Positions 5,036-59,789 of a DNA stretch of 64,000 bases are shown here, piece after piece. Every line of letters begins with the position of its first letter. Position 1 is the stretch's first letter. Origin of the DNA: Ginglymostoma cirratum (lineage: Eukaryota); the NCBI GenBank assembly GCA_024137785.1, contig JAHRHZ010000067.1:5729016-5793015 (forward strand). Reading direction: 5' to 3'. Made by a program: the position numbers and the translations under genes. The notes below the pieces were generated by a model. It saw only the letters and a program-made list of their open reading frames with translations, made no database searches and was not told the DNA's origin.

Positions 5036-8000
5036 CTGGTTCATTGATACTTGTAGATGAAGCATTACAGTGAAGCTGATCCTGTCTGTTACAGAGCATA
5101 CAGCACGGAAACAGACTCTTCGGTCCAACTCGACCGTGCCGAACAAATTTCCCAAACTACGTCCTATTTGCCTGCATTTGGACCATATCCCTCTAAACCC
5201 TTCCGTTTCAGATACCTATTCAAGTGTTTTTTAAACGTTGTACTGTACCTGCATCTGCCACTTCCTCTGGCAGATCATTCCACATACGAACAACTCTGCG
5301 TGTGAAAGAAAACATAACGTGTGCATAGATCCCTGAAAGTTGCCACCCAGGTTGATAGGGTTGTTAAGAAGGCGTACGGTGTGTTAGGTTTTATTGATAG
5401 AGGGATTGAGTTTTGGAGCCATGAAGTCATGTTGCAGCTGTACAAAACTCTGGTGCGGCCGCACTTGGAGTATTGCGTACGGTTCTGGTCACCGCATTAT
5501 AGGAAGGATGTGGAAGCATTGGAAAGGGTGCAGAGGAGATTTACCAGGATGTTGCCTGGTATGGAGGGAAGGTCTTATGAGGAAAGGCTGAGGGACTTGA
5601 GGCTGTTTTCATTAGACAGAAGAAGGTTAACAGGTGACTTAATAGAGACATACAAGATGATCAGAAGATTGGATAGGGTGGACTGTGAGAGCCTTTTTCC
5701 TCAGATGGTGATGGCTAGCAAGAGGGGACATAGTTTTAAATTGAGGGGTGATAGATATAGGACAGATGTCAGAGGTAGATTCTTTACTCAGAGAGTAGTC
5801 AGGGCATGGAACGCCTTGCCTGCAGCAGTTGTAGTCTTGCCAACTTTAAGGGCATTTAAATGGTCGTTGGATAAACATATGGATAATAATGGAATAGTGT
5901 AGATTAGATGGGCTTCAGATTGGTTTCACAGGTCAGCGCAACATCAAGGGCCGAAGGACTGCGCTGTAATGTTCTACGTTCTATAAGTTGCTGGAAAAGT
6001 TCAGCAGTTCTGGCAGCATCTGTGAAGGAAAAAATTCAGAGTGAATGTTTCAGGTCCTCTTCCTCAGAACTGCATGTGGAAAAGGCTGTCCCTCAAGGTC
6101 CCTTTTAAATCTTTCTTCTCTCACCTTAAAGATATGCCACCCTCGGGAAAAGACTCTTGTTATTCACCTTATCTATGCCCCTCATGATTTTATAGACCTC
6201 TTATAAGGTCACCTCTCAACTTCCTACACTCCAGTGAAAAAGTCCCAGCCTATCCCTATAACACGAATCCTTCCTTCCTGGTAAGTCTTTTCTTAACCTC
6301 TCCAACTTAATAATATCCCATCCTGTAGGGTGACCAGAACTGAAGACTACTCCAAAAGTGATTTCACCAGTGTCTTGTACAGTCTCAACATGATGTCCCA
6401 ACTCCTATACTCAGTGGTCTGACCAATGAAAGCAAGTGTGCTAAATGCCTTTTTAACCACTCTGTCTACCTCTGATACAATTTTCAAAGAACTAGGTACC
6501 TGAACCCCCTAGGTCTGCCTGTTCAACAACACTACCCAGGGCCCTACCGTTAACTCTTTGTTTTCCTTTTCAGGTGGCTGTTTAAAGATTCGTTAGCAGC
6601 AGAATCAATAGCCTAATGTTATTACTGCTAGACTATTAATTCAGAAACCCAATTTCCAATCTGCAATTAAAGGTCTAACAGTGACTGTCAATTGTTGGGA
6701 AAAAATACATGTGGCTAAATAATGTCTTATGGGAAGGAAACTGCTGCCTCAGTGTGACTTCAGATCCACAGAAATGACAATAGATGCTTGTCAAAATAGT
6801 GGTGTCCACATTCCACCAGCAACTAAAAACAACTCCTGTGACTCAGAAGGGTCTGCGTTCAATTAGCATCCAGAATTGGAGTTCAGGCTGACCTTCCCTT
6901 CTGGTGCAGTACCGAGAGCATAGCACACTTATTGGAAGAGCAGGGAAATTACTCTCAATACACTCATCTGTTCAGTAATTATCCCTCAATTAGCAGTTCG
7001 GGCGGCTGTGATTTGGTGGTAATATCACTGAATTAGTAATCTAGAGACTAACCCTTGGGTTTTAATTCAACCTTGCTAAAAATCAGGAGTTGAAAACTGG
7101 TATAACAAGGTGTAGAGCTGGATGAACACAGCAGGCCAAGCAGCATCAGAGGAGCAGGACAGCTGACGTTTTGGGTCTGGACCCTTCTTCAGANNNNNNN
7201 NNNNNNNNNNNNNNNNNNNNNNNNNNNNNNNNNNNNNNNNNNNNNNNNNNNNNNNNNNNNNNNNNNNNNNNNNNNNNNNNNNNNNNNNNNNNNNNNNNNN
7301 NNNNNNNNNNNNNNNNNNNNNNNNNNNNNNNNNNNNNNNNNNNNNNNNNNNNNNNNNNNNNNNNNNNNNNNNNNNNNNNNNNNNNNNNNNNNNNNNNNNN
7401 NNNNNNNNNNNNNNNNNNNNNNNNNNNNNNNNNNNNNNNNNNNNNNNNNNNNNNNNNNNNNNNNNNNNNNNNNNNNNNNNNNNNNNNNNNNNNNNNNNNN
7501 NNNNNNNNNNNNNNNNNNNNNNNNNNNNNNNNNNNNNNNNNNNNNNNNNNNNNNNNNNNNNNNNNNNNNNNNNNNNNNNNNNNNNNNNNNNNNCTGGACC
7601 CTTCTTCTGAAGAAGGGTCCAGACCCAAAACGTCAGCTTTCCTGCTCCTCTGATGCTGCTTGGCCTGCTGTGTTCATCCAGCTCTACACCTTGTTATCTC
7701 AGATTCTCCAGCATTGGCAGTTCCTACTATCTCTGTTGAAAACTAGTGTTGTGAAACTATTGTCAGTTGCTGTAAAAATCTCATCTACTTCACTGTCATT
7801 CTTACCAACTCTAGCCTATATGTGACTCCAGACCTACAGCTGTGTGGTTGACTCCATGTGGCCTGCTAGCCACAATTCAAGGGCAGGCAGGGATGAACAA
7901 CAATAGGGAAGTCACAGCTCACAACAGAAAATCAAATCATTCTCACGTTATTGCTTGTGAGAGCTCGCGTGCGTATTGACCAATATTACTTTAGAGACTA

Positions 8001-17000: not shown

Positions 17001-18445
17001 TCTCTTCTAAAAAATCATATTCTAAAACTATAAAATTCTGTATTATAGAATTTATGGAAAATGTTGTTATATCCTTAAAAACAGTAAAGATAATATTTCC
17101 ATACAATTTTTGTCTTGTAATCTCTAGCTACAAAATCTTGGTACTCCACTGTGCCTCTCTGTGATTCAGTACAGTTTGATAAAGCAGCAGCCAGGATTTA
17201 CAGGGTTTCATGTAGATTGATTAGTTGCTGGCTGGACTTAAATGACTTGATACGTAAATTCAACAATAATTGGCTGTTACATGTGTCTACACTGTGCATA
17301 TATTGGCAACATGAAGCTTGGTTTCTCTCCAACTACAGAAATCAATTGGAAAAGCTCTTATTTCTATCATGTGCTGGTTTTTAATCCTGTAATTATAGTT
17401 ACCGAATGTGATAGCAGCCTGATTCAAAATAAGGCTTCATTTAGTCTCGCTGATCAATATTCCTTCTTCAGCCAATTTCTCATTAATACTTGTGGGGCAC
17501 TGCTGCTGCACTGTCGCTGCTGTGGTTCCACACAGAACAGTTTTAGCACTCTTAAAAAGGGAAGCTCGTCAATGAGAAAACCCACTGTTTAAATGCCAGT
17601 ATTTATTTCCCGGTGTTGTTGTGTTTTGTGATCACATTCGGTAAATTAAACATGATGTCACTACATTCCAGTTGGGGAGCAGTTATAAATTACTGTCATG
17701 TCATTTGTGCATGGATTATAAAGCTTTTAAAAAAAAAAAAAAAAATACGCTGCACAACCAGGGAACTAATGAAGACCTCTGGTGTGTGAAATGAATAGCA
17801 AAGGTATGTTGAAGTGAAATTAGGAACTGCGCATACTAGAGATCTGAAACAAAAAGACAGGAAATTTGTGAAGAAACTCCATTCTGGTAGCATGTGTGGA
17901 GATGTTAAGTTTATACTTGAGTGATGTTGGCTCTGTGTATTGATCATTTCATAAAACTAAATCCTTTTTATTACCAGGTTAGCATATACAAACTTCTCTT
18001 CGAGGGTATGATGAAAGGCCAACTGAACAAGGAAACCATCACTGATCACCTTCACTTACGGAGAGAGCAGCCGTTTAGTTCGGAGATTCTGATGCATGCT
18101 CAAAAGGTGGGATTTTCCACAAACACGTTTGGTGACCTTCTGGATTTAATGTTGCTAAACCTGACGTATGCAGAGATCCCCAATATTGACACCATGAAGA
18201 TAGAATACTGTTACCAAGCGGATGCCTCTCTAATTGGAACAGAAGTGGTGTACTTTGACGAGGCGTGGGTTAAAAGTGAGTTAAAGCATTATTGCTCTTT
18301 CTGGAAGGGCCAGAGGGAGGCCAAGGGTGTGGATATTGAGGAGGCATGGAAATGTCAGTCTTGTGACTTTGCAGACATTTGTGAGTGGAGACAAAGTAAA
18401 GCTGAAGAAGCTACGCTAAAGAATCGAGCAAATCAAAGCAAATGA
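4881..18445 (+). CDS. EXO5: Exonuclease V (Fe-S cluster ssDNA exonuclease), join(4881..5031,11743..11839,13040..13296,15192..15296,15683..15855,17978..18445), 416 aa
   Basis: Translation matches vertebrate EXO5 motifs: [41 protein letters not shown]...[39 protein letters not shown] (4 Fe-S Cys). All introns are GT-AG, phases agree, total 1251 nt. Exons 1-2 are less certain than exons 3-6. Confidence 0.93.
5085..6555. mobile_element. Nested CR1 fragments: minus copy (5085-5305 and 6073-6555) split by a plus copy (5318-5985) and a PLE scrap
   Basis: ORF 5321-5902 is the CR1 ORF2 C-terminus; the flanks are contiguous reverse-strand CR1 3' sequence. Confidence 0.85.
7102..7734. mobile_element. 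Palindromic PLE-derived element spanning a 400-N gap
   Basis: Inverted ~90-bp arms; TSD GTTGAAAACT(G/A)GT at 7089-7101 and 7735-7747. Confidence 0.8.
11135..11570 (+). mobile_element. CR1 LINE 3' end
   Basis: Near-identical reverse complement of 41029-41460. Confidence 0.9.
11743..11839 (+). CDS. EXO5: EXO5 coding exon 2 (low-complexity linker)
   Basis: ctcctAG acceptor and AG|GTAATT donor; open frame that bridges phase 1 to phase 2 exactly as exons 1 and 3 require. Confidence 0.7.
12100..12795 (+). mobile_element. Degenerate CR1 fragment
   Basis: [21 protein letters not shown]. Confidence 0.75.
13040..13296 (+). CDS. EXO5: EXO5 coding exon 3
   Basis: Pyrimidine tract plus CAG acceptor; encodes [16 protein letters not shown] and HLAR; donor G|GTAACT. 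Confidence 0.92.
15192..15296 (+). CDS. EXO5: EXO5 coding exon 4
   Basis: ttttAG acceptor; encodes [27 protein letters not shown]; donor G|GTATGT. Confidence 0.93.
15683..15855 (+). CDS. EXO5: EXO5 coding exon 5 (catalytic PD-(D/E)xK core)
   Basis: Encodes [23 protein letters not shown]...ELKTR; donor CAA|GTGAGT. Confidence 0.93.
17978..18445 (+). CDS. EXO5: EXO5 coding exon 6 (C-terminal Fe-S cysteines, stop)
   Basis: ttaccAG acceptor; encodes [10 protein letters not shown]...[14 protein letters not shown], then TGA. Confidence 0.95.
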   Translation, partial: VSIYKLLFEGMMKGQLNKETITDHLHLRREQPFSSEILMHAQKVGFSTNTFGDLLDLMLLNLTYAEIPNIDTMKIEYCYQADASLIGTEVVYFDEAWVKSELKHYCSFWKGQREAKGVDIEEAWKCQSCDFADICEWRQSKAEEATLKNRANQSK

Positions 18446-21169: not shown

Positions 21170-21740
21170 AACGATGGAAGCTGGAGTTCTGAAATAAAAA
21201 CAAAGTGCTGGAGAAAAGCAGCAGGTCTAGTAGCATCTGTAGAGAGAAAGAGACCGGAATTAATGTTTCAAGTTGAATAACTCTTCAGATCTGAAGACGG
21301 CTGGAAAATTATGGTTTTTATGCTGCAGTCAAAGAGAGAGGAGGAGCAAGTTGAACAGATGGTGAGGCTGCCTGGAGCAAAAGGCAAAGGGAATGCTGAC
21401 GGTAGTAGAGGACAGCTATAGATGTAGCGTGTGTTTATGGAAGTTGTAAGTAGCAGAAAATAGGTCAGCTCTGCTACTAACATCTACCATTAACACCTGT
21501 TCTACATCTATATCTCTCCATTACTACTATTAGTATCCCGTTGCCTTTGACTGTGGGCAGCCTCACCATTTGTTCAACTTTTTCCTCCTGCTGTTCCCTT
21601 TTTTTTTTGCTAACAGCAAAAATGCCATCATTTTCCAGCCCCCTTCAGTTCTGAAGAATTTCCATTGGACTTGAAACATTAATTCTGTTTCTCTTTCCAC
21701 AGATGCTGCTGGACCTGCTGAGTTTCTTCAACATTGTATT
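21170..21740. mobile_element. Older, long palindromic PLE-derived element (~230-bp arms)
   Basis: 21205-21440 is an imperfect reverse complement of 21487-21736; degenerate hammerhead at ~21651. Confidence 0.7.
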
Positions 21741-22084
21741 ATTTTCACTACATTCGCATACTTACACTGAATTTTTTCTTCATGGTTTTATTCTCTAAAT
21801 GATCACTAATGTAATGTTTCATGTCCATTCCTGTATCAGATTTCCTTAACTTGGAGTATTTTAATGTTATAATGTAAAATGCACTTTATTTTTATTATAA
21901 ATAAACAACATTGTCTCATATACCATTTAAGTATGTTATTTTTTGAACTTCTGTAAAGCTCACATATTAAAATTGTTTGCAAAGTTTTGATTGATCCTGT
22001 TTCAGATTTTTATCCTGCGATAGAAATGCAAATATTTCTGTCACTTTAGCATTGCATGGATGATGTCTGTTAGGCCATCGCCTC

Positions 22085-25679: not shown

Positions 25680-25985
25680 TAAAAACCGGAAGAACTGCAG
25701 ATGCTGTAAATCAGGAACAAAAANNNNNNNNNNNNNNNNNNNNNNNNNNNNNNNNNNNNNNNNNNNNNNNNNNNNNNNNNNNNNNNNNNNNNNNNNNNNN
25801 NNNNNNNNNNNNNNNNNNNNNNNAAGCTCAGCAGGTCTGGCAGCATCTGTGAAGAAAAGATCAGAGTTAATGTTTTGGGTCCGGTGACTGAGGAAGGGTC
25901 ACTGGATTCAAAACATTAACTCTGATCTTTTCTTCACAGATGCTGCCAGACCTGCTGAGCTTTTCGTGCAACTTTGTTTTTATTG
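25680..25985. mobile_element. Palindromic PLE-derived element containing a 100-N gap
   Basis: Inverted arms AAGCTCAGCAGGTCTGGCAGCATCTGTGAAGAAAAGATCAGAGTTAATGTTTTG and its reverse complement. Confidence 0.75.
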
Positions 25986-27842
25986 CCAAATCTGATGTTC
26001 CTCTACTGGCCGATGACAAGCTATGAGTCTATAGTGGGCATTGGGAATACTTTACGTGTCCATTGCCTACGTACCTCTGTACACCTTCCAAGTATGTGGC
26101 CTGATGGTTAAACAGCAACTTAGGTGAAAGATGGGATTATATGTCCAATGGAATGCTAGCCATGTGCTGTGAGCAGTGTGGCTTTTTTGGGGCAGCTGTA
26201 CCATGATGTTGCTGCTGAGGGGGCCACACTGGATTGCCAACACTTGTCTGGGTGCACAGCGGCCTTTCAAAGGTGGCACAGGTGCAAGTGCTGTCAGTTT
26301 TTTCAGTGGATATCTGCTGAGTGAAATGTTGTTCTGGGAATGGTGCATGGTAAGACAGAGCGGAAATCGGATGTTAGAGATGCCATAGGGGTGTAGTAGG
26401 CAATTTTAGTGCCGTAAATTTGGTAAGATTAAACAAGAAAACTTGCCAAGCCTCGTGGAAAAAAATATAATGCAACTTCAGCCAAAAAAAAAAATCATTT
26501 GTGTCTGCTTGATTCCCAAATTTGCACTCATGGAATTGGGAGATGCCTCCTATTTTTAAAAAGGATTGAAAATTCAGAGGAAAATATGAAGGTATCATTA
26601 GTGTAGTACATTGTAATTGCTTTACAACATAGAGCTTAGCATTGCTAAAAACAGACACAGAGTCAAAGTTTTTGATCCTACACTCGTCAGGATTGGATGC
26701 TACAAACCAGCCCTGTACAGTTGAATATCTAAAAGTTCAGACAAACATCATGGCCTAGCCACATATTTGTGTTTTCATGAAAAGCAATGAGGATGTTACA
26801 ACTAAAGATTGACTATCCCACATCCTCAAAGTAAGGTCACCACAGTGCAACTCTTTCATTTAAAGGTAGGTAGGACTGGTGGTGGTTTAACCTGTGTGTC
26901 ACCAGAGCTCAGGTGAGGGGAAGAGGCTGAGAAGGAGAGTCCTTCATGGTAACCTCAGCTGGTGCAGGAAATGAACCCACGCTGTTGGTGTTTGCAAACC
27001 AGCCGTCCAGCTAATTGATTCCTCAATAATGAAAAAGGCACAGAGCTTTCATACAACAACAATAATGCATGATTTTTGTGACAGTGCACTACAGAGTTTC
27101 ACCATGTTTAATTCTAAGCTTAATTATGGTAAACAAGTGGAACTTGTGACAACTTTTCTGCAAAGCATTTGGCTGCTGCAGTGATGTTACAAAATGTCTG
27201 GAATCTATAAGACTGTAAGAAATAGGAACAGCAGCAGGCCGGTCAGTCCCCTCAAGCCTGTTCTGCCATTCAAAAGGATCATGACTGATCCAACGTTCCT
27301 CATGTCCACCTTCCTGCCCTTTCCCCATAACTCTTGATCCACCTACTGATCAAGAATCTATCTATCTATCTCAGCCTTAACTACACAGAAAGACTCTGTC
27401 CCCACAGTTCTCTGTGGCAAGGAGTTCCAAAGGCTCCCGAGAAATTCCTCCTCAGGCTTAAATTGGCAGCGGGGGCTGGAATGTTAAATGTCTTCAAGGC
27501 AGAGATTGATAATTTCTTGATCTCGCAAGGAATTAAGGGCTATGGGGAGAGTGCGGGTAAGTGAAGTTGAAATGCCCATCAGCCATGATTAAATGGCAGA
27601 GTGGACTCGATGGGCCGAATGGCCTTACTTCCACTCCTATGTCTTATGGTCTTATGAAAGGATTGTTGTATATCAAGGATTATCCTAGTGAACCTTCTCT
27701 GAACTAACTCCAAGGAAATGATATCTTTCCTTAAATAAGAGGGCCAAACTGCTCACAGTATCCCAGATATGGTTTCAATAGCGCCTTGTCCAGTTACTAG
27801 TAAGACTTCCATACTTGTTGAAATAAAAGCCAACATTCCATT

Positions 27843-27944
27843 CAGGTCTGAGGAAGGGTCACTGGACCTGAAACGTTAACTCTGTTTTCTACTTCATAGG
27901 TGCTGCCAGACCTGCTGAGCTTTTCCAGCAACTTTGTTTTTGTT
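27843..27944 (+). mobile_element. Short PLE terminal fragment with hammerhead core (27848-27877)
   Basis: CUGAGGA-A-GGGUC-acug-GACCU-GAAA-C-GUU; perfect 13-bp TSD CCAACATTCCATT at 27830-27842 and 27945-27957. Confidence 0.75.
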
Positions 27945-28519
27945 CCAACATTCCATTAGCCTGCTAGATTACTTGCTGCACCTAGTTTTGTGTTTCGTGC
28001 ACAATCCCGAATACCCTTTATGGTGCAGCTTTCAGTAGCTTGTCTTCATATAAATAATACTCTTTTTGTTTTCCTTTCTAAAATGAACACCTTGGCATTT
28101 TCCCACATTATGCTCCAGAAAATGCTGGAAATATCCAGTGGGTCAAAGGTTACTGGCATTGTCTTCAGTGTGTATCTGACTCAAATGTTTCAGACTCCCC
28201 TTTTCTCCCTTAAAGCTCCCTCCCTTCCATTCCACCCCTACCCTTGACTAAAGCTGTCCAGCAAATATCCACTGTACTTCCCCAGCCTTACCGCAGCTCC
28301 CATTCGTAAAGGGCTGCTGTGTGAGTGTATTTGAAAATCGTGAATGCATACTAAATACTGTTCCCAGTAATTTGTTTTTACAAACGCAAATTAAAGGTGG
28401 AATAGCACATCAGAAACACACAGCGCCCCGCCTCCCGCTGAAACCTCGCAACGCTCCGTTCTTATTGCGAAACTGATGTCCCTTCAAACTGCAATTACCA
28501 GAAACGTCCTGGTTAAATC

Positions 28520-28605: not shown

Positions 28606-31600
28606 GTAAGAAAGTCGAACGCTTCCAGGATGAAAGAGGCAGATCGTGTTTTAAATTTTGACGTTTGTCATTTGACGATTGGAAAGCGGCGTTTCGAATG
28701 AAACTAAGTGCTTGTGGGATCCTTAAAGTGCAAGACCAGATTAAAATGGCAGTGCAGCTGCTTATCTTTCGGTTCCTGGTGATATCTGCAAATGGTCTTG
28801 AATATAATGAACACATCAATACGCGATGAACGTCATTGGCTCACTATGGCAATGACGGGAGAATAAAATGGCTTTTGGGACCCTTCCCCTTCTTTTCCAG
28901 TTGGGAGAAGATTAGAAGCTCATGCATAATAAGGACCGAGGGTTGGGTGAAACATCTTTCTGACTGCCATTGTGATTGTGAAGATTTCCTCTTTGGATCA
29001 ATTTAGCTCAGTATACTTGGACTATTCCCCCTGAACTACAAGGTACTGCCACCACAATGCAGTGCTGAAGGAGCAAGTCCTTCAGGGTGGGAGTATGGTG
29101 ATAGGTGAGTGCAGGTAGGGAGTGGTCAGTGAGGTGGGCGAAGTGGATAGGTGGGAAAGAAGATGGACAGGTTGTGTCAGGACAAGGAGGTCGGGATGAG
29201 AGGGAGGGTTGGTCATGGAATGAGGCTGGGGGGTGGTGGGGAGATTTTGAAACTGGTAAAGTCCACGTTTAGGCCTTTGGGTTGTAGGCTCCCCAGGCGG
29301 AATATGAGGTGCTGCTCCTCCACTTTCTGGGTGGTGCCATTGTGACACAGGAGAAGGCCCAGGATGGACATGTCACCCAGGGAATGGGAGGGAGAGTTGA
29401 CCGGAAGGTGTTGTTGTTTGTTGCGAACAGAGCGCAGGTGCTGTACAAAGCGGTCTCTGAGCCTCCACTTGGCCTCACCGATGTAGAGGAGGCCACATCA
29501 GAAGCAGCGGATGCAATAAACCACATTGATGGATGTGCAGGTGAACCTCAGTCTGATGTGAAAGGTTTGTTTGGTGCCTTGAATGAAGGTAAAGGGGGAG
29601 GAGTAGGGGCAGGTGTAGCACTTCCTGCGGTTGCAGGGAAAGGTGCCGGGGGTGGTGGTGCTAGTGGGGGAGTTATGGAGAGAGCAGTCCCTACGAAAGG
29701 CAGATGGGGGTGGGGACGGAAATATATCTTTGGTTGTGGGGTTGGATTGTAGGTGGTGGAAGTGGCGGAGAATGATACATTGGATATGGAGGTTAGTGGG
29801 GTGATATGTGAGGACAAGGGGGATTCTGTCTTTGTTTTTGTTGGGGGGAGGGAATGAGAGGACAGAGGTGCGGGAAACATAACAGATGTGGTCGAGAGCA
29901 TTTTTGACCACTGAAGAGGAGAAGTTGAGGTCTTTGAAATAAGATGACATCTGAGATGTTTGGGAGTGGAACGCCCCACCTTGGGAGCAGATGCGGCAAA
30001 TGCGGAGGAATTGGGAATAGGGGATTGCATTCTTGCAGGAAGGTGGGTGAGAGGAGGTGCAGTCTAGGTAGCTGTGGGAGTCGGTGGGCTTGAAATAGAC
30101 GACGGTTTTGAGGCAGTCACCAGAGATGGAGACAGAGAGGTCCAGGAAGGAGAGGGAGGTATCAGAGATGGTCCAGGTGAACTTGAGGTTGGGGTGAAAG
30201 GTGTTAGTAAAGTTGATGAACTGTTCAAGCTCCTCATGGGAGCACGAGGCAGCGCTGATACAGTCATCGATGTATTGGAGGAAGAGGTGGGGGATGGGGC
30301 CAGTGTAGATGCGGAAGAGGGACTGTTCCACGTATCCTACAAAGAAGCAGGCATAGCTTGGGCCCATGCCGGTACCCATGACCACCCGCTTTGTCTGTAG
30401 GAAGTGGGAGTTCCCTATCTTCCCCAGCCACACCCCTCCTCTCTCTATTTATTTCTGAGCTCCCTTCCCCCTCCTGCTTTTCTGAAGAAGGGTCCTAACC
30501 CGAAACGTCAACTTTCCTCTCTTGCTGCCTGGCCTGCTGTGTTCCTCAGTGTGTGTTATCGCTGAAGGAGTAAGGTTTGGTAGCCATAGTCTTACCAGAC
30601 CATAGGGCTGCTGTCTACTGGAGAGAGAGAGAGAGAGATGGAGAAAGAGAGAGATAACTGGTGGTGGTTTAACCTCAGCTGAGTGGTAGTGGTAGTCCTT
30701 CATAGTAATCTAAGCTGTTGCAGGAATTGAACCCACGCTAGTGGTATCTCTCTGCAGCACAACTGGCCATAAAACCAACTGAGCTCAATGCTGTTGTAAT
30801 GCTTTTCATGACTGATGGAATTGTAAACTCCTTATGACAGACAGCTAGATGTTAAAATGTCGCTACCTCTAGGCAATTAGAGATGGGCAATAAATGCTGG
30901 TCTAACCAATGACGTCTACATCCCATGAACAAAATAAAGTAAAGAAGGGGGTTGGCTAGTCAGTTGGTTGAGTGCAGAGTGACACCAACGATGTGGGTTC
31001 AGTTCCTACGTCAGCTGAGGTCAATGTGAGAGTCCTGCCTTCTCAGCCTTAGCCCCTCACCTGAGGTGTGGTGACCCTCAGGTTAAACTACCCATCAAAC
31101 ATGTCACTGTCTAATGGACAAGCAGCCCTATGATCATCTGGAACCATGGTGACTTCACCTTGTCTTCATTTTAAAGAAGAACAGAGAGTTCTTTGTTATC
31201 TGTGGAAGTGTCCTGGCCACTGAGGGAGTGCAACTGATTCCAGGGATGGCACGATTGACAGTGGGGGGAGATTGGACTGGTTAGGACTATGCTCACTGGA
31301 GTTTAGAAGAATGAAGGGGAGATCTGCTAGAAACCTATAAAATTTCAACAGGACTAGACAGGGTAAATGCAGTAAGGATGTTCCTTATGACCAGGGAGTC
31401 AATAGCCGGAGATCTCAGTACAAGGATACAGGGTAGATCATTTAGGATCAAGATGACGAGAAATTCCTTCACCCTGGGAGTGGTGAGCCTGTGGAATTGT
31501 CTGCCTCAGAAAGCAGTTGAGGACAAAAATATTTGATCTTTTCAAGAAGGAGGTAGACATAGTTCTTGGGGACATAAAAGAGTACGTGGAGAACAGTGTA

Positions 31601-34600
31601 CTGAGATAACAAGGTGTAGAGCTGGATGAACACAGCAGGCCAAGCAACATCAGAGGAGCAGGAAAGCTGACGTTTCGGGTCTAGACCCTTCTTCAGAAAT
31701 GGGGGAGGGGAAGGGGTGTCTGAAATAAATAGGGAGAAAGGGGGAGTTGGATAGAAGATGGATAAAGGAGAACAGTGTACCGAGTTGGATCAGAAACAGA
31801 AGTTGGTGGAAAAGCTCAGCAGGTCTGGCAGCATCTGTGAAGAGGAAGAGCCACCGGACCCAAAACGTTAACTCTGATCTTTTTTCTTCACAGATGCTGC
31901 AGATCTGCTGAGCTTTTCCAGCAACTTCTGTTTTTGTTCCTGATTTACAGCATGTGCAGTTCTTTCGGTTTTTATGTACTAAGCTGGATGATCAGCTATG
32001 ATCATACTGAATGGCAATGCAGGCTCCCAGGGCTCAATGGCCAAATCCTGCTCCTATTTTCTATGTTTCTATGTGTCTTATCCCTCAGCAAACACATCAG
32101 CCAATATCACCCATTCATGTAATTCATTTCTGTGAAGTGTATGTGGCCTGTGTTTGGCTCTGTGTTCAATCAACTTACATTTATATGATGGCTAACTTAT
32201 GACCAACTTACTCAGAGAAAGGTAGATCAAAGGCACTCCTTCAGTTGTTTACGGAAATCTAAGGGTTTTATTTAGGAGCTTTCTGTGAGCTTGTGGACTG
32301 ATTGAGTGGACAGAGTGAAGTGCAGTCTGGTTGAAAGCCTTTGAAACATACAACTGGATCCATATCATGGAGACCTATTCATACTTAACTTCATATTAGG
32401 GCTGAGGCTAGTTTAACTGCAGTCAGTTCAATAACATAACATCATTGTGCATGTATACTTGCATTTAAGACTACTTTAATTTCAGGAGTCACAATCTAAT
32501 CCATGTAAAATGAATTAGCTTCAGAATATAACCCACTAATTGAAAACTTTAGGAGCAGAACAAAATCTTAGCTAATATTCTCAAGTGCTCCAATCTTTTT
32601 GTAAGACGGAAAATTGACCTTGTTAAAAATGGACTAAAATGTTCAATTTTTAATCTACTACATGTTTTTGAACTTTAAACTCATGGGCCACTGTGACATC
32701 ATATGATGGGAATCAATGTTAAAAGATTTGTTTTTTCATTGAGGTGCCTGGGTAATTTGTGGAGTGTTGGTATGCATTTGGTATTAAAAGTTTTGTATTT
32801 AGATGCTTTTATGTATTTTTAAGGAATTGTGCAGGCGCAGAATGGACGCAGGATTCCAGGCAGAAAGTTGGACTGCGCGTTTGTAGAACAAAAGCAAAAT
32901 GAACAGGCTGAAGTGTTTGGGCCAATCATCATCAAAAGGAAGGCAATCCTACTGTTTGGTGATATTGTTACAAATGAAGAGGCCATTATTTTTAAAGTTC
33001 AAGGTAAAGATGAAACATATCTTCAAATTAATTCTCTCAGGCAAGCCCCCTCTGCTGTACATAGAGTAAAACAACATAAAAGTGCTTTAATGCTCCCAAA
33101 GTTACTTGTAATAAAGTCCTGCATTGTTTATTTTGTTAGAGTAGCAGATCTCCCATGGCATTGCTCATAATAATTCAGACAATCCACTGATATCTAAGAA
33201 GTAATAAATGCTGTAAAACACAAGAGAGGTAATTTGTAACACCCATCAATCCATTGGAAAATGAATAAATTAAGCACGATTCTGGTTTTATATCCAGCCT
33301 GATTATTTTTTATTGAAGTCACTGGTGAGTAATATTGTCCAGAGATTTAAACAGATGTTCCATATGATCCCTTGGTTTCCTAGGCAGCAAGTTCAGTCAA
33401 AAACATCCTCAAAACGAATTATTCTCCAGATAAACGTAAGTATGCATCTCTTTAATTGTACAACACTAATTGAATCCAGGGTTTGAAGCTGAGCAAGGAA
33501 ACTCGTAGGCTGATTCATGGCCAGCTCAAGGCAACACTTTAAAAGGACCAGAACCGCATCAGCCCTGGTCTTTATTAAATGGTTGAACAGGCTTGGAGGA
33601 TCAGATGGCCACCTTCTGTTCCTAAATTTTATGTTTCCGTGTCCTGCAGCACAGTTTCAGTAAATGACTTCAACCTAGACTTCCTAGATCAAAGGCAGGG
33701 ACAGTACCACTAATGATCAAGTTTGTAGTTCATTTTCAATTAAACCGATTTTTCTAATCAACTGTTCAGAGTTGTTTTTACACATCTCTGGAGCAGGTAG
33801 GATTTGAATCCAGGGACACAACCACTGCACCACAAGAGGGTCCCCTTATGTGCATTCAAGTGAAGCCTCAATGAATGCCATTCACCTGCATATAATTAAA
33901 CATAATTGACAAAAAATTAATCTGGGTATTAGTGGATACTATTTACCTGGCCTTTTGATCGTAATCCAATAGAATATATAATTGATGCAATCATTTAAGT
34001 CTCATATCAACCATAGGTTATGTGACTTGCCATGTCACAGTACACAGCGTGAAAGAATGAACAATCTTGCACACCCCATTTCAATTTGGTGCAAATGGAG
34101 CTTAACATAGTGAAGCAATTCATTTACTGAGACTTACCAATAAGGTGATATTATAGGGGTATATCTGGGCAGATTGCTGTGCTTAAGTTGGCTTCTGCAT
34201 TTCTTACATTACTACAGGGATTACTTGTCAAATGTAAGTCCTTGGCTGAAAAACTCTTGGAGATGTCTTGAGCTTGTAAAAGGTGCTAAACAAATGCATT
34301 TCTTTCTGTTTCATGAAGGACAAGGTGTTAACAAGAATCCATTGCTGGAAGAAAACAATTCTGCGCAACTTATGAAATTAAAACATGACAGGGCTAGCTT
34401 ACTCATTTAAGAGTGACTTGTTTCAATCAAAAGTTAGGCTGCATTTTCAATGTTTTGTTTGAAAACATCTTTTGGGACAGACAAGTCTACAGGTTCTTCA
34501 GCTCCCTGAAGTCAGCCTATTAAATATATATATTCAAGATGTAAATGCAATTTTTCAGAAAAATTTATAGGATCTTACAATGTGGGAGGAACAGCAAACT

Positions 34601-37600
34601 GTGCTTCATTAATATTGAGACCTCTCTCTATGTGACTAATTTCCATCATTTCTAATAATTTGCTGTTACTTATTATGTGAATCAATTTTTTTTTTTTTTA
34701 ACAGAGTCTTCATTAGATGTTTTCCAGTATGTGGACGAGAAACTGGACACATTGGGATGTGAAATTAATAGGTATTCTACTCTCGGCATCCATATGCCCT
34801 GGCCGCATGAGGGTAAGGAGGCTATTGAAGACATATGGTTCACAGTGACTTTAAAGCATTTAAGTAGCAGGTTCACTGTAACCAGCTTCATGAGGAAGAT
34901 AGAAGAGCCCGATAGCCAGAAAGTTGAGAAAAGTGAAGCAAAAACTGATGGTGAAGATTTATCCATTGGTGACACTGACACTCTGTTTGTTCAAGGTAAT
35001 GTTTTGATGTTGACCAGCTGAGTGCATGTTCAGAGTGAGTGCTGCAAGAATGTGTGTGAGATGTGCGCAATATTTGTTTTGCATAAGCATATTAAACTCT
35101 ATCAACTCCAACGATAATACAAGAGATGAAACATCCAAAGAAATATAAACAACTTACGACTGCATATTTAAGATGCTGAAATTCAGAGAACATGCAATTT
35201 CAAATAGTTTTGGCTGAGTTATTAGTAGTGATCTAACTGTCAGAAAAATGGACGGTCATGACTGTTTGTTTTTATTTGTTAGTGACCTATATTGTACACA
35301 CCAGGACCCCATTGATCAGAACTAAACTGAAGCAAGACCTCGTTCTGGACTGCGGCTACAAAATTGATCACAGTACAGACTTTAACGTTGACTGGCGGTA
35401 TCAGCACAAAGGGAGCAAGAAGAAATTGTTCTCCTACAATGGGCGACATCAGCGGATTGAATTCATTGAGAAAGGAGTTGAAGTATTCATGGACCAGATC
35501 AAGAAGGGAAATGCTTCACTCCGTTTAAGAAACATTGGTGTTCAAGATGAGGGATCCTACATGTGTTCTGTATATGTGCCTCCACTCTTTGGAACACACA
35601 CCATTGAGGTCGAGATTATGGGTAAGATGTTGAATCCAGTGAATTAATCAACATGGAAAGTTAACAGATTAGTGGAAATGTATTCATTCATTTGGTAACA
35701 AAACAGCGCAGAAGTCAGTAGAAGGTTGAAAGGATCATTTTCACCTTACTGCCTCCTAAGTATAGCTGAGGTTGTTGCTCCAGTAGTAGTGCCTGGATTA
35801 ATTATTCCAACCTACAGCAAGGTGCGTTTTAACATCATGCAGAAATGTAGAGTGCAAGTTGTTCAGATTTGTACCAGCGCACCAAAAAAAAAACCTTCAC
35901 CCTGGTTATCTTCTAATCAACCTGCTCAAGGGTGTTGTGACCTCCAGAGCAGATGGGAATTGAACCTAGATAACAAGGTGTGGGGCTGGATGAACACAGC
36001 AGGCCAAGCAGCATCATAGGAGCAGGAAAGCTTGACGTTTCGGGCCTAGACCCTTATCTAGTTGAGAGGTAGCATCACGAGAGCCTTGCCGTGACTATTA
36101 GCGATCAGAGTGATTGCAATCCAGCTCAGCTATGCATCAGGTTGTTTCTATTTACTGAAGAGGGACTCAGTGGCTTGCTCCTGGTCTTATGTTCTCCTCA
36201 TTAGAAGAGGAGTCATACCAGACACACAGTGGCAACTCTGCTCCTCTCTTCACAGATGCTGAGTTTCTCCAGCATTCTCTGTGTTTGGATATGGGCCTGG
36301 ATTGTGATTCTGTGGTAGAGACAAGTGAGACAAATATAGCAATGTAAACTTAAGGAAGCAGCATGGGATTGCCATTGTCCCTGTTCCGTAAACTGAGCAA
36401 ATGCCAAACCTTCACAGATGGATGTTGTAGTCTGCGCCCTGCTGCTATCATCATAATTTTGCCTCGAATGCAAACTGTTTCAGCAGCTTTTTGTTACAGT
36501 GTGTTAACTGTGTAATGTGATTGTACAGAAAATATTACTATCAAAAGCTGTTGAAACTACTGATTTTTAAAAGAAATTTTCTTGGTTACTTGTCATGTTC
36601 TCAATGAAAAGCTCTCTTATTCTAATCTGGTTCCAATTAAATGGATTGAAAGCTGAAAATCCCAAGTGTCAAAAAGCACCTGTGAATCTTGAATGTGTAT
36701 TCAGTTGATGTGAAGTGTTGCAATACAGCGTGTTTGCTTATGTTATAGAGTCGCCCGTTGTCTCTGTGAACCCTGATTCGGTTTCCCTTATCGAAGGGGA
36801 TGAACAGAAGCTGGTCTGTGATGCAGGGCGGTATTATCCACTTGATGTAGCGGTGAAGTGGCTGCGGCAAAGGGACGAGGGGCACATGCTGCCCGTTTAC
36901 ATGACGAATGTTGTCTTCTCCCCCCACAAGCAGAACATGGATGGCACCTACAACATGACCAGTTATTTCAGGTTCACAGCATCCCTCCAGGACAATGGTG
37001 TTACTTATGTATGTCGAGTTGAGCACGCCAGCTTAGTGAAACCAATCAAACAGTACGTCCAAGTGAATGTAGAAGGTAAGCAATGAACAGAGTCCTATGG
37101 TACTTATAATTGTTTGTGGTAAAACGTTCAATATGCAATAAAATTTGACGCCAGAGCTGCTCATGAATTTTATTTAACCTCTCATATTTATATTGAAGCT
37201 GCACTGGTGTAGTGAAAACCTCCTATGAGTTCACCTATCATGGGTTTTGAAACCAATCTGGTCCATTCATTTAAACTGATTAGCCTTCCCAAAGGTCCAA
37301 TCTTTGTGTCAGTTTTCTAGCAGTCATACACACCTGTTTTCTCAAAATCTGCTTCAGTCAGGAGAAAGGAGCTAAGTGAAACGAGGAATTCTGTACACAT
37401 TGACACATTTCTCTCCAGTGGAATATAGATGGCCATGGTAGTTACCCTCCATAATTTCCAAGCTCTTACCAAGCTTTTACAATACTTTGTTTCTTATGCA
37501 GATATTGTGGAGAAAGTTAAACTGATTGTAAGAAAAGTTCTTGCAATTACTTTGTTACTTTTTGTTGTACATTCAGTATATCATCACCCCATAGTTTATG

Positions 37601-40600
37601 CCCCATTTGAATGAGCAACAATTCCTTTAGCCTGCTTAGGTTTGGCATTATAGGCTCCATATTCTAAAATGGCTATTGTTAGTGTCACCATCCTCTGACA
37701 GGGAAGGATAGGTTAGTCTTTGACCTTTTTGCTCACAACGGATCACTCTGGCTTTGCCAAGCAAGCTGGGCTCCTAAGAACAATTCACAGATGGCAAGAA
37801 CTGCAGATGCTGGAGTCAGAGACAACACTGTGGAACACAGCAGGCCAGGCAGCATCAGAAGAGCAGGAACGTTAATGTTATAGATCATGTTTTGTTTTCT
37901 TTTAATGTGGCTTTCTTTCATTGAAACACAATGCTACAGATTTGGTACTAACAATAAAACAGAAGTTTATTGCACAGAAGGCATAAAGTTAAAATAAGAC
38001 AAACAAAGCTATCTAAATTTAACACGGTTTGAAAAAAAATTAAAACACACAGTGAAGCATAATCCCAGCCACTAGCCAAGGCCATCACTTGACAAGCTCC
38101 AGAGAAATTCCTTCCTTATCAAATCTGTAGGTTTGACTTAACTGCGTCTTCTCAGTTCTGGTCCCATGAGCTGTGAAGCTTTTTCAGTTGAAGAAGCAAA
38201 CCGTCAAGAGCTTAGATTTCCTCAGTATTTAAATAATCTGCAGTGTTATAACCAAACACTGCTGGTCTGTTAGTTTCACAGACTACGCTTTTCACTGAGG
38301 CAACTTATTTCCTTAACTGCTCTGAACAGTCTCCCACTGAAGATGAAGATATACCTGTTTCTCACCCCAGTCAGGTTCTCCAATGATCTCCCCACAAGCT
38401 TTTGAACTAAATTTAAAAACTTACTCATCCTAGCTTCTGCTAAGCTAATGACTTAATGTTTTCTCTCTCTGGTCACAATCCCCCACAATACAAACACGCT
38501 TGCATTAACACTCGAGAAGGCAAATACTGGTTTAAAATTGTGGTTCTGGAAAGACTGACCTAGTTAATTTCTAAAACCCTTCACAAAAATAGACAAACAC
38601 GTGGCAGAGATAGTAAGAACTGCAGACGCTGGAGTCAGAGAAAACACTGCGTAGAGCTGGAGGAACACAGCAGGCCAGGCAGCATCAAAGGAGCAGGAAA
38701 GCTGATGTTTCAGGTCAGGACCCTTCTTCAGACCCATTTCTGAAGAAGCGTCCCAATCCAAAACATCAGCTTTCCTGCTCCTTTGATGCTGCCTGGCCTG
38801 CTGTGTTCCTCCACCTCCACACTGTAAACACATGTGGTACTAGTTCAAGATCCAAACTCTCAAAAAAAGGTTAGTGTAGTTAAATTACACACTTTTCATC
38901 ACAACACTGTTACCACTGTGCATTGAATGTTGCTGGTGGCTAATGGCTTGCCAGTTAAGCAGACTGCTTTGTCCTGAATGGTGTTAGGTTTTGTTCGCGT
39001 TGTAGCTCCAAGTGGAGTGTGTTCCATCATATTCCTGACTATTACCTCATAGATTGACAAACTTTGAGGAGTAAGGATGTCAGTCAGTCTAAGCAGAATT
39101 CCATTTCTAGTCAATGGAAATACCCAGAATGTTAATAATAAGAGATAAATGCCATTGAATGTTGGGTAGCAGGCTAGATTTTATTTTCTTAGAGATGTTC
39201 ATTGTCTGGCAGTTGTGTGGCACAAATGTATTTTGCTACTTATCAGATAAGCCTGATTGTTGTCCGGGCCTTGCCACATATGGGCAAGAATTAATTATCT
39301 GAGGAGTTGTAAATTGTGCAGAGCATCATGTGATCATAAGTAATCTTGAAATTACATGCTTACTATTTGTTGTACATTCAGTATATCATTATTCCGTAGT
39401 TCATTCCCTATCTGCATCAACAATGACTCCTTTAGCCTACTTAATTTTGGCACTATGGGCTCTACATTCTAACATGGCTATTGCCAATGTCACCACGAGA
39501 CCGTTTGACTGGGAAGGATAGGTCAGTCAAACCATCAATATTACCACTCTGGCCTTATGATGGAGAGAAGATTATTGATGAAGCAGATGAAGATGATTGG
39601 GTCAAGAATACTATCGTGAGGAACTCCAACAATAATGTCCCTGGGCTAAGATTATTGACCTCTAATGACGACAACTACCTTCCTTTGTACTAGACATGAC
39701 TCTAACCAGCAGAGAGTTTTGCTCTGATTCCCACTAACTTCAGTTTTGCTGAGGCTCCTGGATTCCATTCTCAATGTATTACTGCCTTGATGCCAATGGC
39801 AGTCACAGTCATTTTCACTCATGGGTTCAGCTTTTTGGTACTTGTTTGAACCAAGGCTGTCATGAGGTCAAGATCTATACTGAGGACATTGCAAATGGAG
39901 CAGTGGAATTTCTCGCCATATGTATTAACTTGATTTTTAAACAATTGTTGGAAATTTCAACTAGAAAGATATATAACAAAACTTAAAACCATCAAAAGTT
40001 GGGATGAAATCTGGGGACTGGACATGATGTTGAATAAATAAAGGCTGCACAGTGTGTATAATGATAGCAAGGTCAGAGGGGTTGTACAGGGTGGGGATGA
40101 TGTGTTGATTATTTTAGGATTTTTTTTCTTTGGCTTCTTGCTTTGCGTCAACATGAATTACCTTGGAAGTGGACATCCACTTGTCAGTGATTGAACAGTT
40201 TTGAAATTGAGTAATTAAATTAAGTTCTACCAATAAACGTATTGAGTGAAAAATGAAAGATCTGTTTTCTGGTATTGGTTTGAAGGATAAATGTTGGCTA
40301 AGATACCCTGCTCTTCAAATTCATGACCTGGAGTAGCAATCTCAAAATACTGACACTGATTAAATGTTTCTTTAATTCCACAGCGCAATCTCAGACACTT
40401 CAATTTATCTTACTGTCAATTGTGATCGTCTTTATCTGTGCTGTTGTGATCATGCTGCTGGTTTACTTGAAAAAAGGTTAGTATTCTGCTATTACAGATG
40501 CTGTGCTGTTAGTCAGCATTCTCTGATTCAGACCGTCAACTTTCACTATAATCACCTTCTGTCTCGACTAATTTTCATTTGGTAGTGCAGAACTGAGCTT

Positions 40601-45312: not shown

Positions 45313-45412
45313 TCATTTTCTGAAGAAGGGTCTAGGCCCGAAACGTCAGCTTGCCTGCTCCTCTGATGCTGCTTGGCCTGCTGTGTTCATCCAGCTCTGC
45401 ATCTTGTTATCC
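45313..45412 (+). mobile_element. PLE terminal fragment with hammerhead core (45320-45347)
   Basis: CUGAAGA-A-GGGUC-ua-GGCCC-GAAA-C-GUC followed by the common PLE tail. Confidence 0.7.
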
Positions 45413-50279: not shown

Positions 50280-53200
50280 CACTTTAACACACCACCCTGC
50301 TCCCTGGCCAACATCTCTGCCTCTGAGATAGTAGGAACTGCAGGTGCTGGAGAATCTGAGATAACAAGGTGTAGACCTGGGTGACTGGAAATGCTATAAC
50401 TCTAGTACGTTGGATGGATTGGTTTTTGTCCAATGTGTGCAGGAGGGTTTCCTGACACAGTATGTCGAAGGGCCGACAAGAGGGGAGGCCACACTGGATC
50501 TGCTACTTGGTAATGATTTAGTGGTAGGTGAGCACTTTGGAGAGAGTGATCATAATTCGGTTACGTTTAGTTTAGCGATGGAAAGGGATAGGAACACGCC
50601 ACTGGGCAAGAGTTATAGATGGGGGCAGGGCAATTATAATGCGATTAGGCAAGACTTAGGAGGGATAGAATGGGGTAGCAAAATGCAGGGGATGGGGACA
50701 ATCGAAATGTGGAGCTGGTTTAAGAAACAGATATTGCGTGTCCTTGATAGGTATGTCCCTGTCAGGCAGGGAGGAAGTGATAAGGTAAGGGAACCTTGGT
50801 TTACAAAAGAAATTGTATCTCTTCTTAAGCGGTAGAGGGAGGCTTATGTGACATTGAGACGAGATGGTTCAGATGAGGCGATGGAGAGTTACAGATTAGC
50901 TAGGAAGGATTTAAAGAGAGAGTTAAGAAGAGCAAGGAGGGGACATGAGCAGTCATTAGCAGGTAGAATTAAGGAGAACCCTAAAGCTTTCTATAGATAA
51001 GTGGGGAATAAAAGGATGACTAGGGTAAGAATAGGGCCAGTCAAAGACAGAAGTGGGAAGTTGTGTGTGGACCCTGTGGAGATCGGAGAGGTGCTAAACA
51101 AATATTTCTCATCTGTTTTCACTCGGGAAAAGGAGAATATTGTAGAGGAGAAGACTGAGATACAGGCTATTAGACTTGAAAGGATTGAGGTTAGTAAGGA
51201 GGAGGTGTTATCAATCCTAGAAGGTGTGAAGATAGATAAACCTCCTGGGCTGGATGGGATTTTTCCGAGGATTCTCTGGGAAGCTAGGGAGGAGATGGCG
51301 GAACCTTTGGCCTTGATCTTTGAGTCGTCATTGGCTACAGGTTTAGTACCAGATGACTGGAGGATTGCAAATGTTGTGCCCTTGTTCAAGAAGTGCAGTA
51401 GAGATGACCCAGGCAATTATAGACCAGTGAGCCTTACATCTGTTGTAGGAAAAGTTTTGGAAAGGATTATAAGAGATAGGATTTATAATCATCTAGCAAG
51501 CAACAATTTGGAGATAGTCAACGTGGATTTGTCAAGGGCAGGTCGTGTCTCACAAACCTCATTGAGTTTTTTGAGAAGGTGACCAAGCATGTGGATGAGG
51601 GTAGGGCAGTTGACGTGGTGTACATGGACTTCAGTAAAGCCTTTGATAAGGTTCCACATGGTAGGCTATTGGAGAAAATGCGGAGGCATGGGATTGAGGG
51701 AGATTTAGCAGTTTGGATTAGAAACTGGCTTTCTGAAAGAAGCCAAAGAGTGGTGGTTGATGGAACATATTCAGCCTGGAGTCCGGTTACTAGTGGTGTG
51801 CCACAAGGATCTGTTTTGGGACCACTGCTGTTTGTCATTTTTATAAATGACTTGGACGCAGACATAGGTGGATGGGTTAGTAAGTTTGCAGATGACATTA
51901 AAGTCGGTGGAGTGGTGGACAGTGTGGAAGAATGTTGCAGGTTGCAGGGAGACTTGGATAAACTGCAGAATTGGGCTGAAAGGTGGCAAATAGAGTTCAA
52001 TGCAGATAAATGTGAGATGATGCACTTTGGGAAGAATAATAGGAAGGCAGAATACTGGTCAATGGAAACATTCTTGGTAGTGTGGATGTGCAGAGGGATC
52101 TTGGTGTCCAGGTATGTAGATCCCTGAAAGTTGCCACCCAGGTTGATAGCACTGTTAAGAAGGCATACGGTGTGTTAGGTTTCATTGGTAGAGGGATTGA
52201 GTTCCGGAGCCGTGATGTCATGCTGCAACTGTACAAAACGCTGGTGCGGCCTCACTTGGAATATTGTGTACAGTTCTGGTCGCCCCATTACAGGAAGGAT
52301 GTGGAAGCATTGGAAAAGGTGCAGAGGAGATTTACCAGGATGTTGCCTGGTCTGGAGCGAAGGTCTTATGAGGAAAGGCTGAGGGACTATGGTCTGTTCT
52401 CATTGGAGAGAAGAAGGCTAAGAGGGGATTTAATAGAGACATACAAAATGATCAGAGGATTAGATAGGGTGGACAGTGAGAGTCTTTTTCCTAGGATGAT
52501 GATGTCGGCTAGTACGAGGGGGCATAGCTGCAAATTGAGGGTTGATAGATTTAAGACAGATGTCAGAGGCAGGTTCTTTACTCAGAGAGTGGTAAGGGCG
52601 TGGAATGCCCTGCCTGCCAATGTAGTTAACTCAGCCATATTAGGGGCATTTAAACAGTCCTTGGATAAGCATATGGATGATGATGGGATAGTGTAGGGGG
52701 ATGGGCTTAGATTAGTTCACAGGTCGGTGCAACATCGAGGGCCGAAGGGCCTGTTCTGCGCTGTATTGTTCTATGTTCTATGTTCTATGTTCTATGTTCT
52801 ATGTTCTAACACAGCAGGCCAAGCCGCATCAGAGGAGCAGGCAGGCTGACGTTCCGGGCCTAGACCCTTCCATTTCTGAAAAAGGGTCTAGGCCCAAAAC
52901 GTCAGCCTTCCTGCTCCTCTGATGCTGCTTGGCTTGCTGTGTTCATCCAGCTCTACACCTTGTTATCTCTGTCTCTGGCTTGCTACAGTGTTCCAGTGAA
53001 GCCCAACGCAAGCTGGAGGAACAATGCCTCATTTTCCACTTGGGGACCCTACAATCCTCCGGACTCAATATTGAGTTCAATAATTTTAGGGCCTAAACTC
53101 TCCCATGTCCCAGCCTCCCCACCCCACATACCAGGCCTTGTTACCACATAGCCGGTCATTACACACCTCCTGTTGTTAGTCACTAACAGTCCCCATTAAC

Positions 53201-59786: not shown

Positions 59787-59789
59787 CTA

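Follow-up and report, generated by a model that had tools for sequence, protein, structure and literature searches.

Minimal hammerhead cores with a one-base insertion in Penelope-like pseudo-LTRs of Ginglymostoma cirratum and the record left by the ends of their copies

Introduction

The window analysed here, a stretch of 64,000 nucleotides from the genome of Ginglymostoma cirratum, contains several copies of a minimal hammerhead ribozyme core with an additional A between positions A9 and G10.1. The locus raises the questions of which element carries these cores, whether the additional base sets them apart from hammerheads already described, and whether insertions of the element were copied from cut or uncut RNA.

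Hammerhead cores in the window

The conserved core letters (CUGANGA-A-helix II-GAAA-CGUH) are present at 27848-27877(+), 30482-30509(+), 31669-31696(-) and 45320-45347(+). These four cores had been described as intact in an earlier note on this DNA, which is correct for the conserved letters and not for helix I, since a 4-bp helix I is retained in none of them. The copy at 27848 has a single contiguous helix I pair (CAGGU instead of CAGUU) and a G10.1-U in place of the G-C pair, while the copies at 30482, 31669 and 45320 have two contiguous helix I pairs each. Two further copies were said to have lost the GAAA; one reads CAAAA at 7626-7630, and the other is found at 52895-52899, ten bases away from the approximate position 52885 given for it, and has lost G8 as well. 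The palindrome to which helix III is reduced, given as AACGUU or ACGU, has ACGU as its working form in both families, and the longer form would additionally pair A14 with N17.

A blastn comparison within the window identified 28 related stretches that belong to two families, A and B, many of them arranged as head-to-head pairs. The features referred to below are as follows.

27843..27944, + strand: family B insertion of 102 bp, the front of a Penelope-like element (PLE) pseudo-LTR, flanked by a 13-bp direct repeat; contains the helix I 5' strand, the hammerhead and the downstream part to the first common 3' end
27848..27877, + strand: minimal hammerhead core of family B, C3 to N17=U, with the extra A at 27855 and a 5-bp helix II
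27830..27842, + strand: left target-site duplication (TSD) of the 102-bp insert, 13 bp
27945..27957, + strand: right TSD of the 102-bp insert, 13 bp
29186..30410, - strand: 5'-truncated PLE ORF fragment with RT core, thumb, cysteine linker and the start of GIY-YIG; its nucleotide sequence is 78% identical to that of L225, the copy with an intact ORF
30433..30547, + strand: PLE end piece in inverted orientation that faces the ORF fragment head to head; contains the core at 30482-30509, subfamily A4
31602..31766, - strand: family A insertion with native upstream 3' UTR; contains the core at 31669-31696, subfamily A3
31588-31601 and 31767-31780: 14-bp TSD of the insertion at 31602..31766
45317..45411, + strand: short family A copy that begins 3 bases before the core at 45320-45347, subfamily A3
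7607..7634, + strand: family A core in which CpG decay has turned G12 into A
7096-7193, - strand: inverted partner of 7607..7634 on the other side of an N run, also with G12 changed to A
52876..52903, + strand: family A core, G8 and G12 both mutated to A, with its fold-back partner at 52808-52870(-)
38638..38822, no strand assigned: head-to-head pair of decayed family A ends, with cores at 38704-38731(-) and from 38739(+)
25824..26000, no strand assigned: head-to-head pair of decayed family B ends, with false matches to miRNA families of Rfam below the gathering score
20227..20393, no strand assigned: head-to-head pair of decayed family B ends, with a core carrying an internal deletion at 20297(+)
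21182..21760, no strand assigned: inverted pair of older B-related ends, with decayed cores at 21288(-) and 21651(+)
31784..31940, no strand assigned: head-to-head pair of decayed family B ends

An Rfam scan of the window at E values up to 10 gave 19 matches with no hammerhead family among them, only miRNA and lncRNA matches below threshold. The window also contains a frame at 17921-18445(+) that matches the C-terminal part of Pfam Exo5 (E 3.7e-26), and exons with Ig V-set and C1-set domains at 35237-35647 and 36709-37086(+), a pairing that we take to resemble a tapasin-related gene. LINE RT fragments are located at 5318-5902, 41116-42291, 51001-52696 and 58926-61195; two of these match RVT_1, their ends are short tandem repeats, and they are presumably CR1-like.

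Abundance of the motif

For the motif counts, we used a strict descriptor consisting of CUGANGA, n extra bases, a helix II that starts with G and has four pairs or more, GAAA, a paired dinucleotide and UH. A descriptor search that allows the extra A had been proposed as a check, and all 4 sites that it recovered in the window have one extra base; sites with no or two extra bases were absent, and no match was obtained in any of 20 dinucleotide shuffles of the window. A sample of the genome made of 100 evenly placed 10-kb stretches, 548,678 bases of which were lettered, yielded 33 matches with one extra base, none without and 2 with two, and the one-base form was absent from all 10 shuffles of this sample. 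Searches of the whole assembly (4.36 Gb) with exact patterns gave 82,468 matches for family A and 8,910 for family B, with no matches for the reversed controls. Since the patterns were tight and a large share of the fetched bases were N, these counts, at least 91,000 cores in total, are lower bounds. All 11 scored core letters were intact in 38 of the 65 family A copies and 9 of the 24 family B copies sampled.

Runs of N are often located between head-to-head PLE ends, as at 7194-7593 in the window and at four other loci (L063, L077, L157 and L188). Young fold-back inserts therefore seem to interrupt the assembly, and their number is probably underestimated.

The host element

The core at 30482 is adjoined in the window by a broken ORF at 29498-30448(-), on which Pfam identified no family at E 0.001. 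A search of the 4.36-Gb genome with this ORF gave 110,434 candidates, of which 126 were scored. A family A core was located downstream of the ORF stop on the sense strand in 25 of the 29 other ORF loci that were fetched, mostly 256 bases past the stop, and the longer ORF of locus L055 matched Pfam RVT_1 (E 8.7e-7, just below the curated cut-off) and GIY-YIG (E 4.7e-5). The family A ORF carries the DKG and YIDD motifs and a CX4CX2C linker, the latter at residue 886 of the L225 ORF. Its N-terminal part contains a Thr/Ala/Pro-rich repeat that varies in length between L195, L199, L204, L205 and L220.

Of the six loci that we extended, L221 carries cores at both of its ends (3,546 bases apart) and is enclosed by an 11-bp TSD. 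L225 (G000:C39) has an open frame of 1,037 amino acids, a 5' end at the hammerhead cut site and a TSD of about 13 bp. The distance from the cut site to the first ATG is 139 bases in the full element. The single ORF encodes RT followed by GIY-YIG, as in EN+ Penelope-like elements, and partial tandems, inverted 5' copies and an optional tail of 30-40 bases, all traits of these elements, were also seen. Family B cores are likewise found behind the ends of PLE ORFs, with 40-60% protein identity to family A, and a further set of cores, family D, is found near more distant RT fragments (27-30%). The loci analysed exclude full-length ORF copies whose repeats lack the motif.

The cores thus sit in the pseudo-LTRs of Penelope-like retrotransposons with RT, GIY-YIG and a Neptune-type linker. 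The match of the core and the linkage to PLE ORFs bear out the earlier assignment to the minimal type I hammerheads of such pseudo-LTRs.

Two side observations concern single groups of loci. The family D loci (L227-L240) have an extra U, a helix II of 6 bp and a helix I that starts from UGCA, and their distant RT is possibly Poseidon-like. In L205 (G000:C20), an inverted PLE end is joined to a 5'-truncated ORF through about seven CCCTAA telomere-type repeats, at roughly 460-500 of the ORF strand, as if telomerase had healed a break or the RT had copied telomeric RNA.

The base between positions 9 and 10.1

The extra base was A in 28 of the 33 matches from the sampled genome. It is A in families A and B, where it was conserved like the core letters (61 of 65 family A and 23 of 24 family B copies), and family D has U in 25 of 27 copies. 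According to the available excerpt of Cervera and de la Pena 2014 (PMC4209133), a base between positions 9 and 10.1 is conserved in the minimal hammerheads of metazoan PLEs. Because it is a published consensus feature of these elements and family D has U, the extra A is not a new variant, and the hypothesis that it defines a distinct ribozyme, for which its prevalence and its conservation could be cited, is highly improbable. Of the earlier description of a very abundant ribozyme variant in this genome, the abundance is therefore retained and the novelty is not.

Helices, decay and predicted folding

In the majority lines of the subfamilies, helix I comprises 4 pairs in B (AGUU/AACU), A1 (AUUU/AAGU) and D1 (UGCA/UGCG), 3 pairs in A2 and only 2 contiguous pairs in A3, which expanded nonetheless. 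These lines agree with the earlier judgement that helix I is plausible for the CUGAGGA type and weak for the CUGAAGA type. The subfamilies visible in the window are older ones; the youngest and largest subfamily (CUGAUGA) has a 4-bp helix I. CG is found at 15.2-16.2 in the majority line of every subfamily with at least 10 copies.

Covariation in helix I was assessed in 10 hand-picked, related sequences. All four pairs showed double-sided changes, with 12 cells compared to 4.6 in shuffles and none of 500 shuffles as high, 9 of the 12 cells coming from three family D rows. Sliding the alignment by one column reduced pairing from 91% to about 30%. Two other covariation measures on the same 10 copies were not above the shuffles (210 and 229 of 500). 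Helix II is 4-5 bp long in families A and B and opens with G10.1-C11.1 across subfamilies, the G-U of the 27848 copy being an exception. Covariation in helix II, also suggested as a check, was observed in family D, where one subfamily has U-A as the third pair and another has C-G; counts within families are biased, since the patterns used to fetch many of the loci prescribe helix II.

The changes in family A are concentrated at CpG positions, with 11 at C11.1, 12 at G12, 11 at C15.2 and 13 at G16.2 among 65 copies. The changes of CGAAA to CAAAA and to UGAAA are accounted for by CpG positions mutating most. The covariation in helices I and II speaks for selection in the lineage, but no selection on single copies was seen, in that the non-CpG core letters were kept no better than the tail. 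In the window, the copies are decaying insertions, which have probably lost the ability to cut.

The active fold was not the predicted minimum at any of 8 sites that were folded as monomer or dimer, and in family A the strand that holds the cut site is predicted to be paired with the core. Inactive folds of lower energy agree with the low activity described in the available text of PMC4209133 and with the need of the anole element for protein in the corresponding excerpt of PMC11167929.

Ends of the copies

The 3' ends of the copies in the genome sample and the window are bimodal and fall near +66 and +100 in family A and near +67 and +94-103 in family B. The two sites are about 35 bases apart and match the PLE tail and the RT starts described in the accessible part of PMC11167929.

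The 5' ends fall within 10 bases at the upstream edge of the core in 46 of 87 family A copies, after 13 of 100 that abut N had been set aside, and in 26 of 65 family B copies. This corresponds to a rate of about 0.11 ends per base at the upstream edge, compared to 0.005-0.011 downstream. Among 28,412 identical young cores, the next 8 bases were kept downstream in 25,153 and upstream in 15,192. Of the youngest copies that extend as far as the core, about 40% thus have their end no more than 8 bases upstream of it, on an initiator-like motif. Gaps beside hairpins inflate the number of ends at the upstream edge, as at 13 of 151 family A sites. In A1, A5 and B, the 5' strand of helix I matches initiator strings such that their A falls on the first helix I base; the consensus strings used (YYANWYY, TCAKTY and BBCABW) have backgrounds of 1.3%, 0.18% and 1.8% per base, respectively. 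The structural 5' edge is the same in families A and B despite the difference in sequence (CAUUU and CAGUU), both of which are initiator-like. L224, an ORF-bearing copy with a unique flank, also begins at the upstream edge.

An untemplated G before the copy, the mark of a cap, was found in 9 of 43 short family A copies compared to 12.8 expected, and a cap-derived G in 6 of 15 eligible flank-joined copies of family B compared to 4.5 expected; in the inverted junctions of family B it was found in 8 of 15 (P 0.05, one of four tests). A strict script resolved TSDs in 5 of 43 short family A and 9 of 22 short family B copies, and 27 of 70 lettered short family A ends were junctions of inverted copies. 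In 20 of 43 flank-joined family A copies, a T precedes the native start, often as one extra T of the helix I strand, which may be due to RT slippage or microhomology.

The cut site was considered as the main 5' peak and rejected, with starts at +1 in 1 of 87 family A and 0 of 65 family B sampled copies. Across the genome, apparent 5' starts numbered 582 at +1, 145 at 0 and 207 at +3. Unrelated flank was joined at 14 of the 30 loci inspected at +1 and at 7 of 20 at 0, the rest being inverted junctions, internal variants and gaps, and clean TSDs were present at 5 of the 30 inspected loci with +1 starts. By our own estimate, A-rich flanks alone would predict an excess at +1 of about 1.2-fold over 0 and about 1.7-fold over +3. 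The minor excess of copies that start at the cut site is suggestive only, and RT stalling at the foot of an inactive hairpin could also produce it. Since insertions contain the cut site and both of its sides, most of them were copied from uncut RNA.

Transcripts

In a poly(A) run with the same species label (X21), 41,045 reads mapped to the front of the full element, with both strands about equally represented, and the depth was lower over the part unique to full elements. There was no pile of molecule ends in this run and hence cleavage was not seen in it, passive copies swamping the signal. Another run (X22) yielded 13 reads, and no RNA-seq reads were found for the unique flanks of the 27848 copy.

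A model for the inserts and its alternatives

Taken as a whole, the reading that we consider highly probable is that these are minimal type I hammerheads of PLE pseudo-LTRs with the one-base insertion that is standard for the class, that the copies in the window are decayed, and that the inserts arose by run-off copying. By analogy with related elements, cutting in the active lineage is likely to be weak, with dimers formed via the ACGU palindrome, and is likely to be helped by the protein of the element. The template for most insertions was uncut RNA. Reverse transcription would probably begin at two sites, about 65 and about 100 bases past the cut site, and would in many cases probably run off the 5' end of an RNA that itself probably begins at the first helix I base, which would give hammerhead-headed inserts of about 100-135 bp.

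More tentatively, and with less than even confidence, we suggest that the hammerhead constitutes the very 5' end of the mRNA, with the 5' strand of helix I doubling as initiator, and that the genome records both cut and uncut states. If so, cleavage would remove the cap and the first 32 or so bases and thereby switch the message off; tens of thousands of copies would represent uncut run-off products from helix I, and a few hundred, including the copy with the 1,037-aa ORF, would start from the cut site.

The accumulation of 5' ends could instead have been generated at the DNA level, by the endonuclease of the element acting on AT-rich cDNA or by fold-back of a cDNA hairpin, rather than by a transcription start, an explanation to which we attach appreciable weight short of thinking it probable. 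The anole enzyme favours ATT sites in its own pseudo-LTR according to the excerpt of PMC11167929, the whole motif is predicted to be able to fold as a single hairpin with its base at C3/U4, many of the short family A ends are junctions of inverted copies, and the cap mark is absent. However, a structural edge shared by two families in different, initiator-like sequence is not easily reconciled with such an origin, nor is the start of the ORF-bearing L224 at this edge next to a unique flank, and the Penelope pseudo-LTR is described as having an internal promoter in the available part of PMC2377424. It is unlikely, though less so than the other alternative below, that the motif is kept for a non-catalytic role, as a core promoter or as a protein-binding or priming structure, with self-cleavage being vestigial. 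Copying from mostly uncut RNA, the inactive predicted folds, the spread of A3 with its weak helix I and the initiator-like helix I strand are consistent with such a role, as are the hammerhead mutants of the anole element, which left insertion in vitro unchanged (PMC11167929, in part), and the Naiad elements, which thrive without canonical hammerheads (PMC8557442, in part). Against it, the conserved core letters are all kept across families with ORFs only 27-60% identical, helices I and II covary, the youngest subfamily has a 4-bp helix I, and apparent 5' ends at the cut site are fourfold over those one base upstream (582 compared to 145). Finally, the regular size, TSDs and very high copy number of the short units might suggest an independent non-autonomous family, a SINE or retrozyme that copies itself. 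This is very improbable, since their sequence is that of the front of the full element with subfamilies matched letter for letter, both ends are ragged over several bases, and tandem arrays of short units are absent among the repeats of the window.

Comparison with known systems

De la Pena and Flores reportedly described in 2001 that the hammerhead of the chrysanthemum chlorotic mottle viroid has an additional nucleotide in its core, located between A9 and G10.1. The viroid hammerhead is a complete ribozyme that acts as a monomer, has a stable helix III and is not part of a retroelement. The comparison of the extra A with this viroid, made in the earlier note, has already been drawn in print (PMC4209133).

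For Penelope-like elements, both the motif and the extra base are already in the literature, and the find is of a known kind. The minimal hammerheads in the available excerpt of PMC4209133 share the type I core, the unpaired base between 9 and 10.1, G10.1-C11.1, the palindromic 15.2-16.2 and, in some of the subfamilies, a helix I of 4 bp, as well as the location in both pseudo-LTRs, the mostly solo copies and the close pairs on opposite strands. Helix II is 4-5 bp in families A and B whereas it is 7-8 bp in Schistosoma (PMC4209133), and helix I, 4-5 bp in the PLE minimal hammerheads of that excerpt, is 4 bp in B, A1 and D1, 3 bp in A2, 2 contiguous bp in A3 and 1-2 bp in the four named copies of the window. 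The copy number of at least 91,000 compares to about 4,000 in coelacanth and 9,000 in Xenopus in the same source, the excerpt of which does not name cartilaginous fish. A literature search for Penelope hammerheads in sharks gave a single review, in which the word 'shark' only describes a shape.

We also considered a non-LTR retrozyme and rejected it, as the copies in the window are solo or inverted and do not form tandem units with complete hammerheads. As presented in the accessible part of bioRxiv 10.64898/2026.07.22.740005, these retrozymes share type I hammerheads derived from PLE pseudo-LTRs and occur in the one chondrichthyan sampled there, but form tandem arrays, in contrast to the solo or head-to-head copies observed here. 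Neptune elements share the order of RT and GIY-YIG, the CX2-5CxxC linker and DKG, and also 5' truncation, partial tandems, inverted 5' copies and a tail (Craig et al. 2021, PMC8557442, in part). This linker is common to Neptune, Nematis and Naiad according to the same text, and the likeness to Neptune seen here is one of linker type.

The role of PLE hammerheads is presented as unsettled in the available parts of PMC8557442 and PMC11167929. The Poseidon element PAc of Anolis carolinensis (Frangieh et al. 2024, PMC11167929), the hammerhead of which cuts only with protein according to the excerpt, has in common with the elements studied here a pseudo-LTR hammerhead upstream of two internal RT starts that give an optional tail of 30-40 bases, uncut RNA as the main template and the absence of RNA-seq ends at the cut site. 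The PAc ORF starts inside the ribozyme, whereas the first ATG is located 139 bases past the cut site in our elements, which have the Neptune-type linker. For PAc, that excerpt mentions no accumulation of 5' ends at the edge of the ribozyme, and a literature search of titles and abstract openings found no description of a shared 5' edge of copies. This record of copy ends could matter, as the genome provides a young family with over 28,000 identical cores, ORFs that are intact and sharp statistics on copy ends, in which the start site and the proportion of cut templates can be tested directly.
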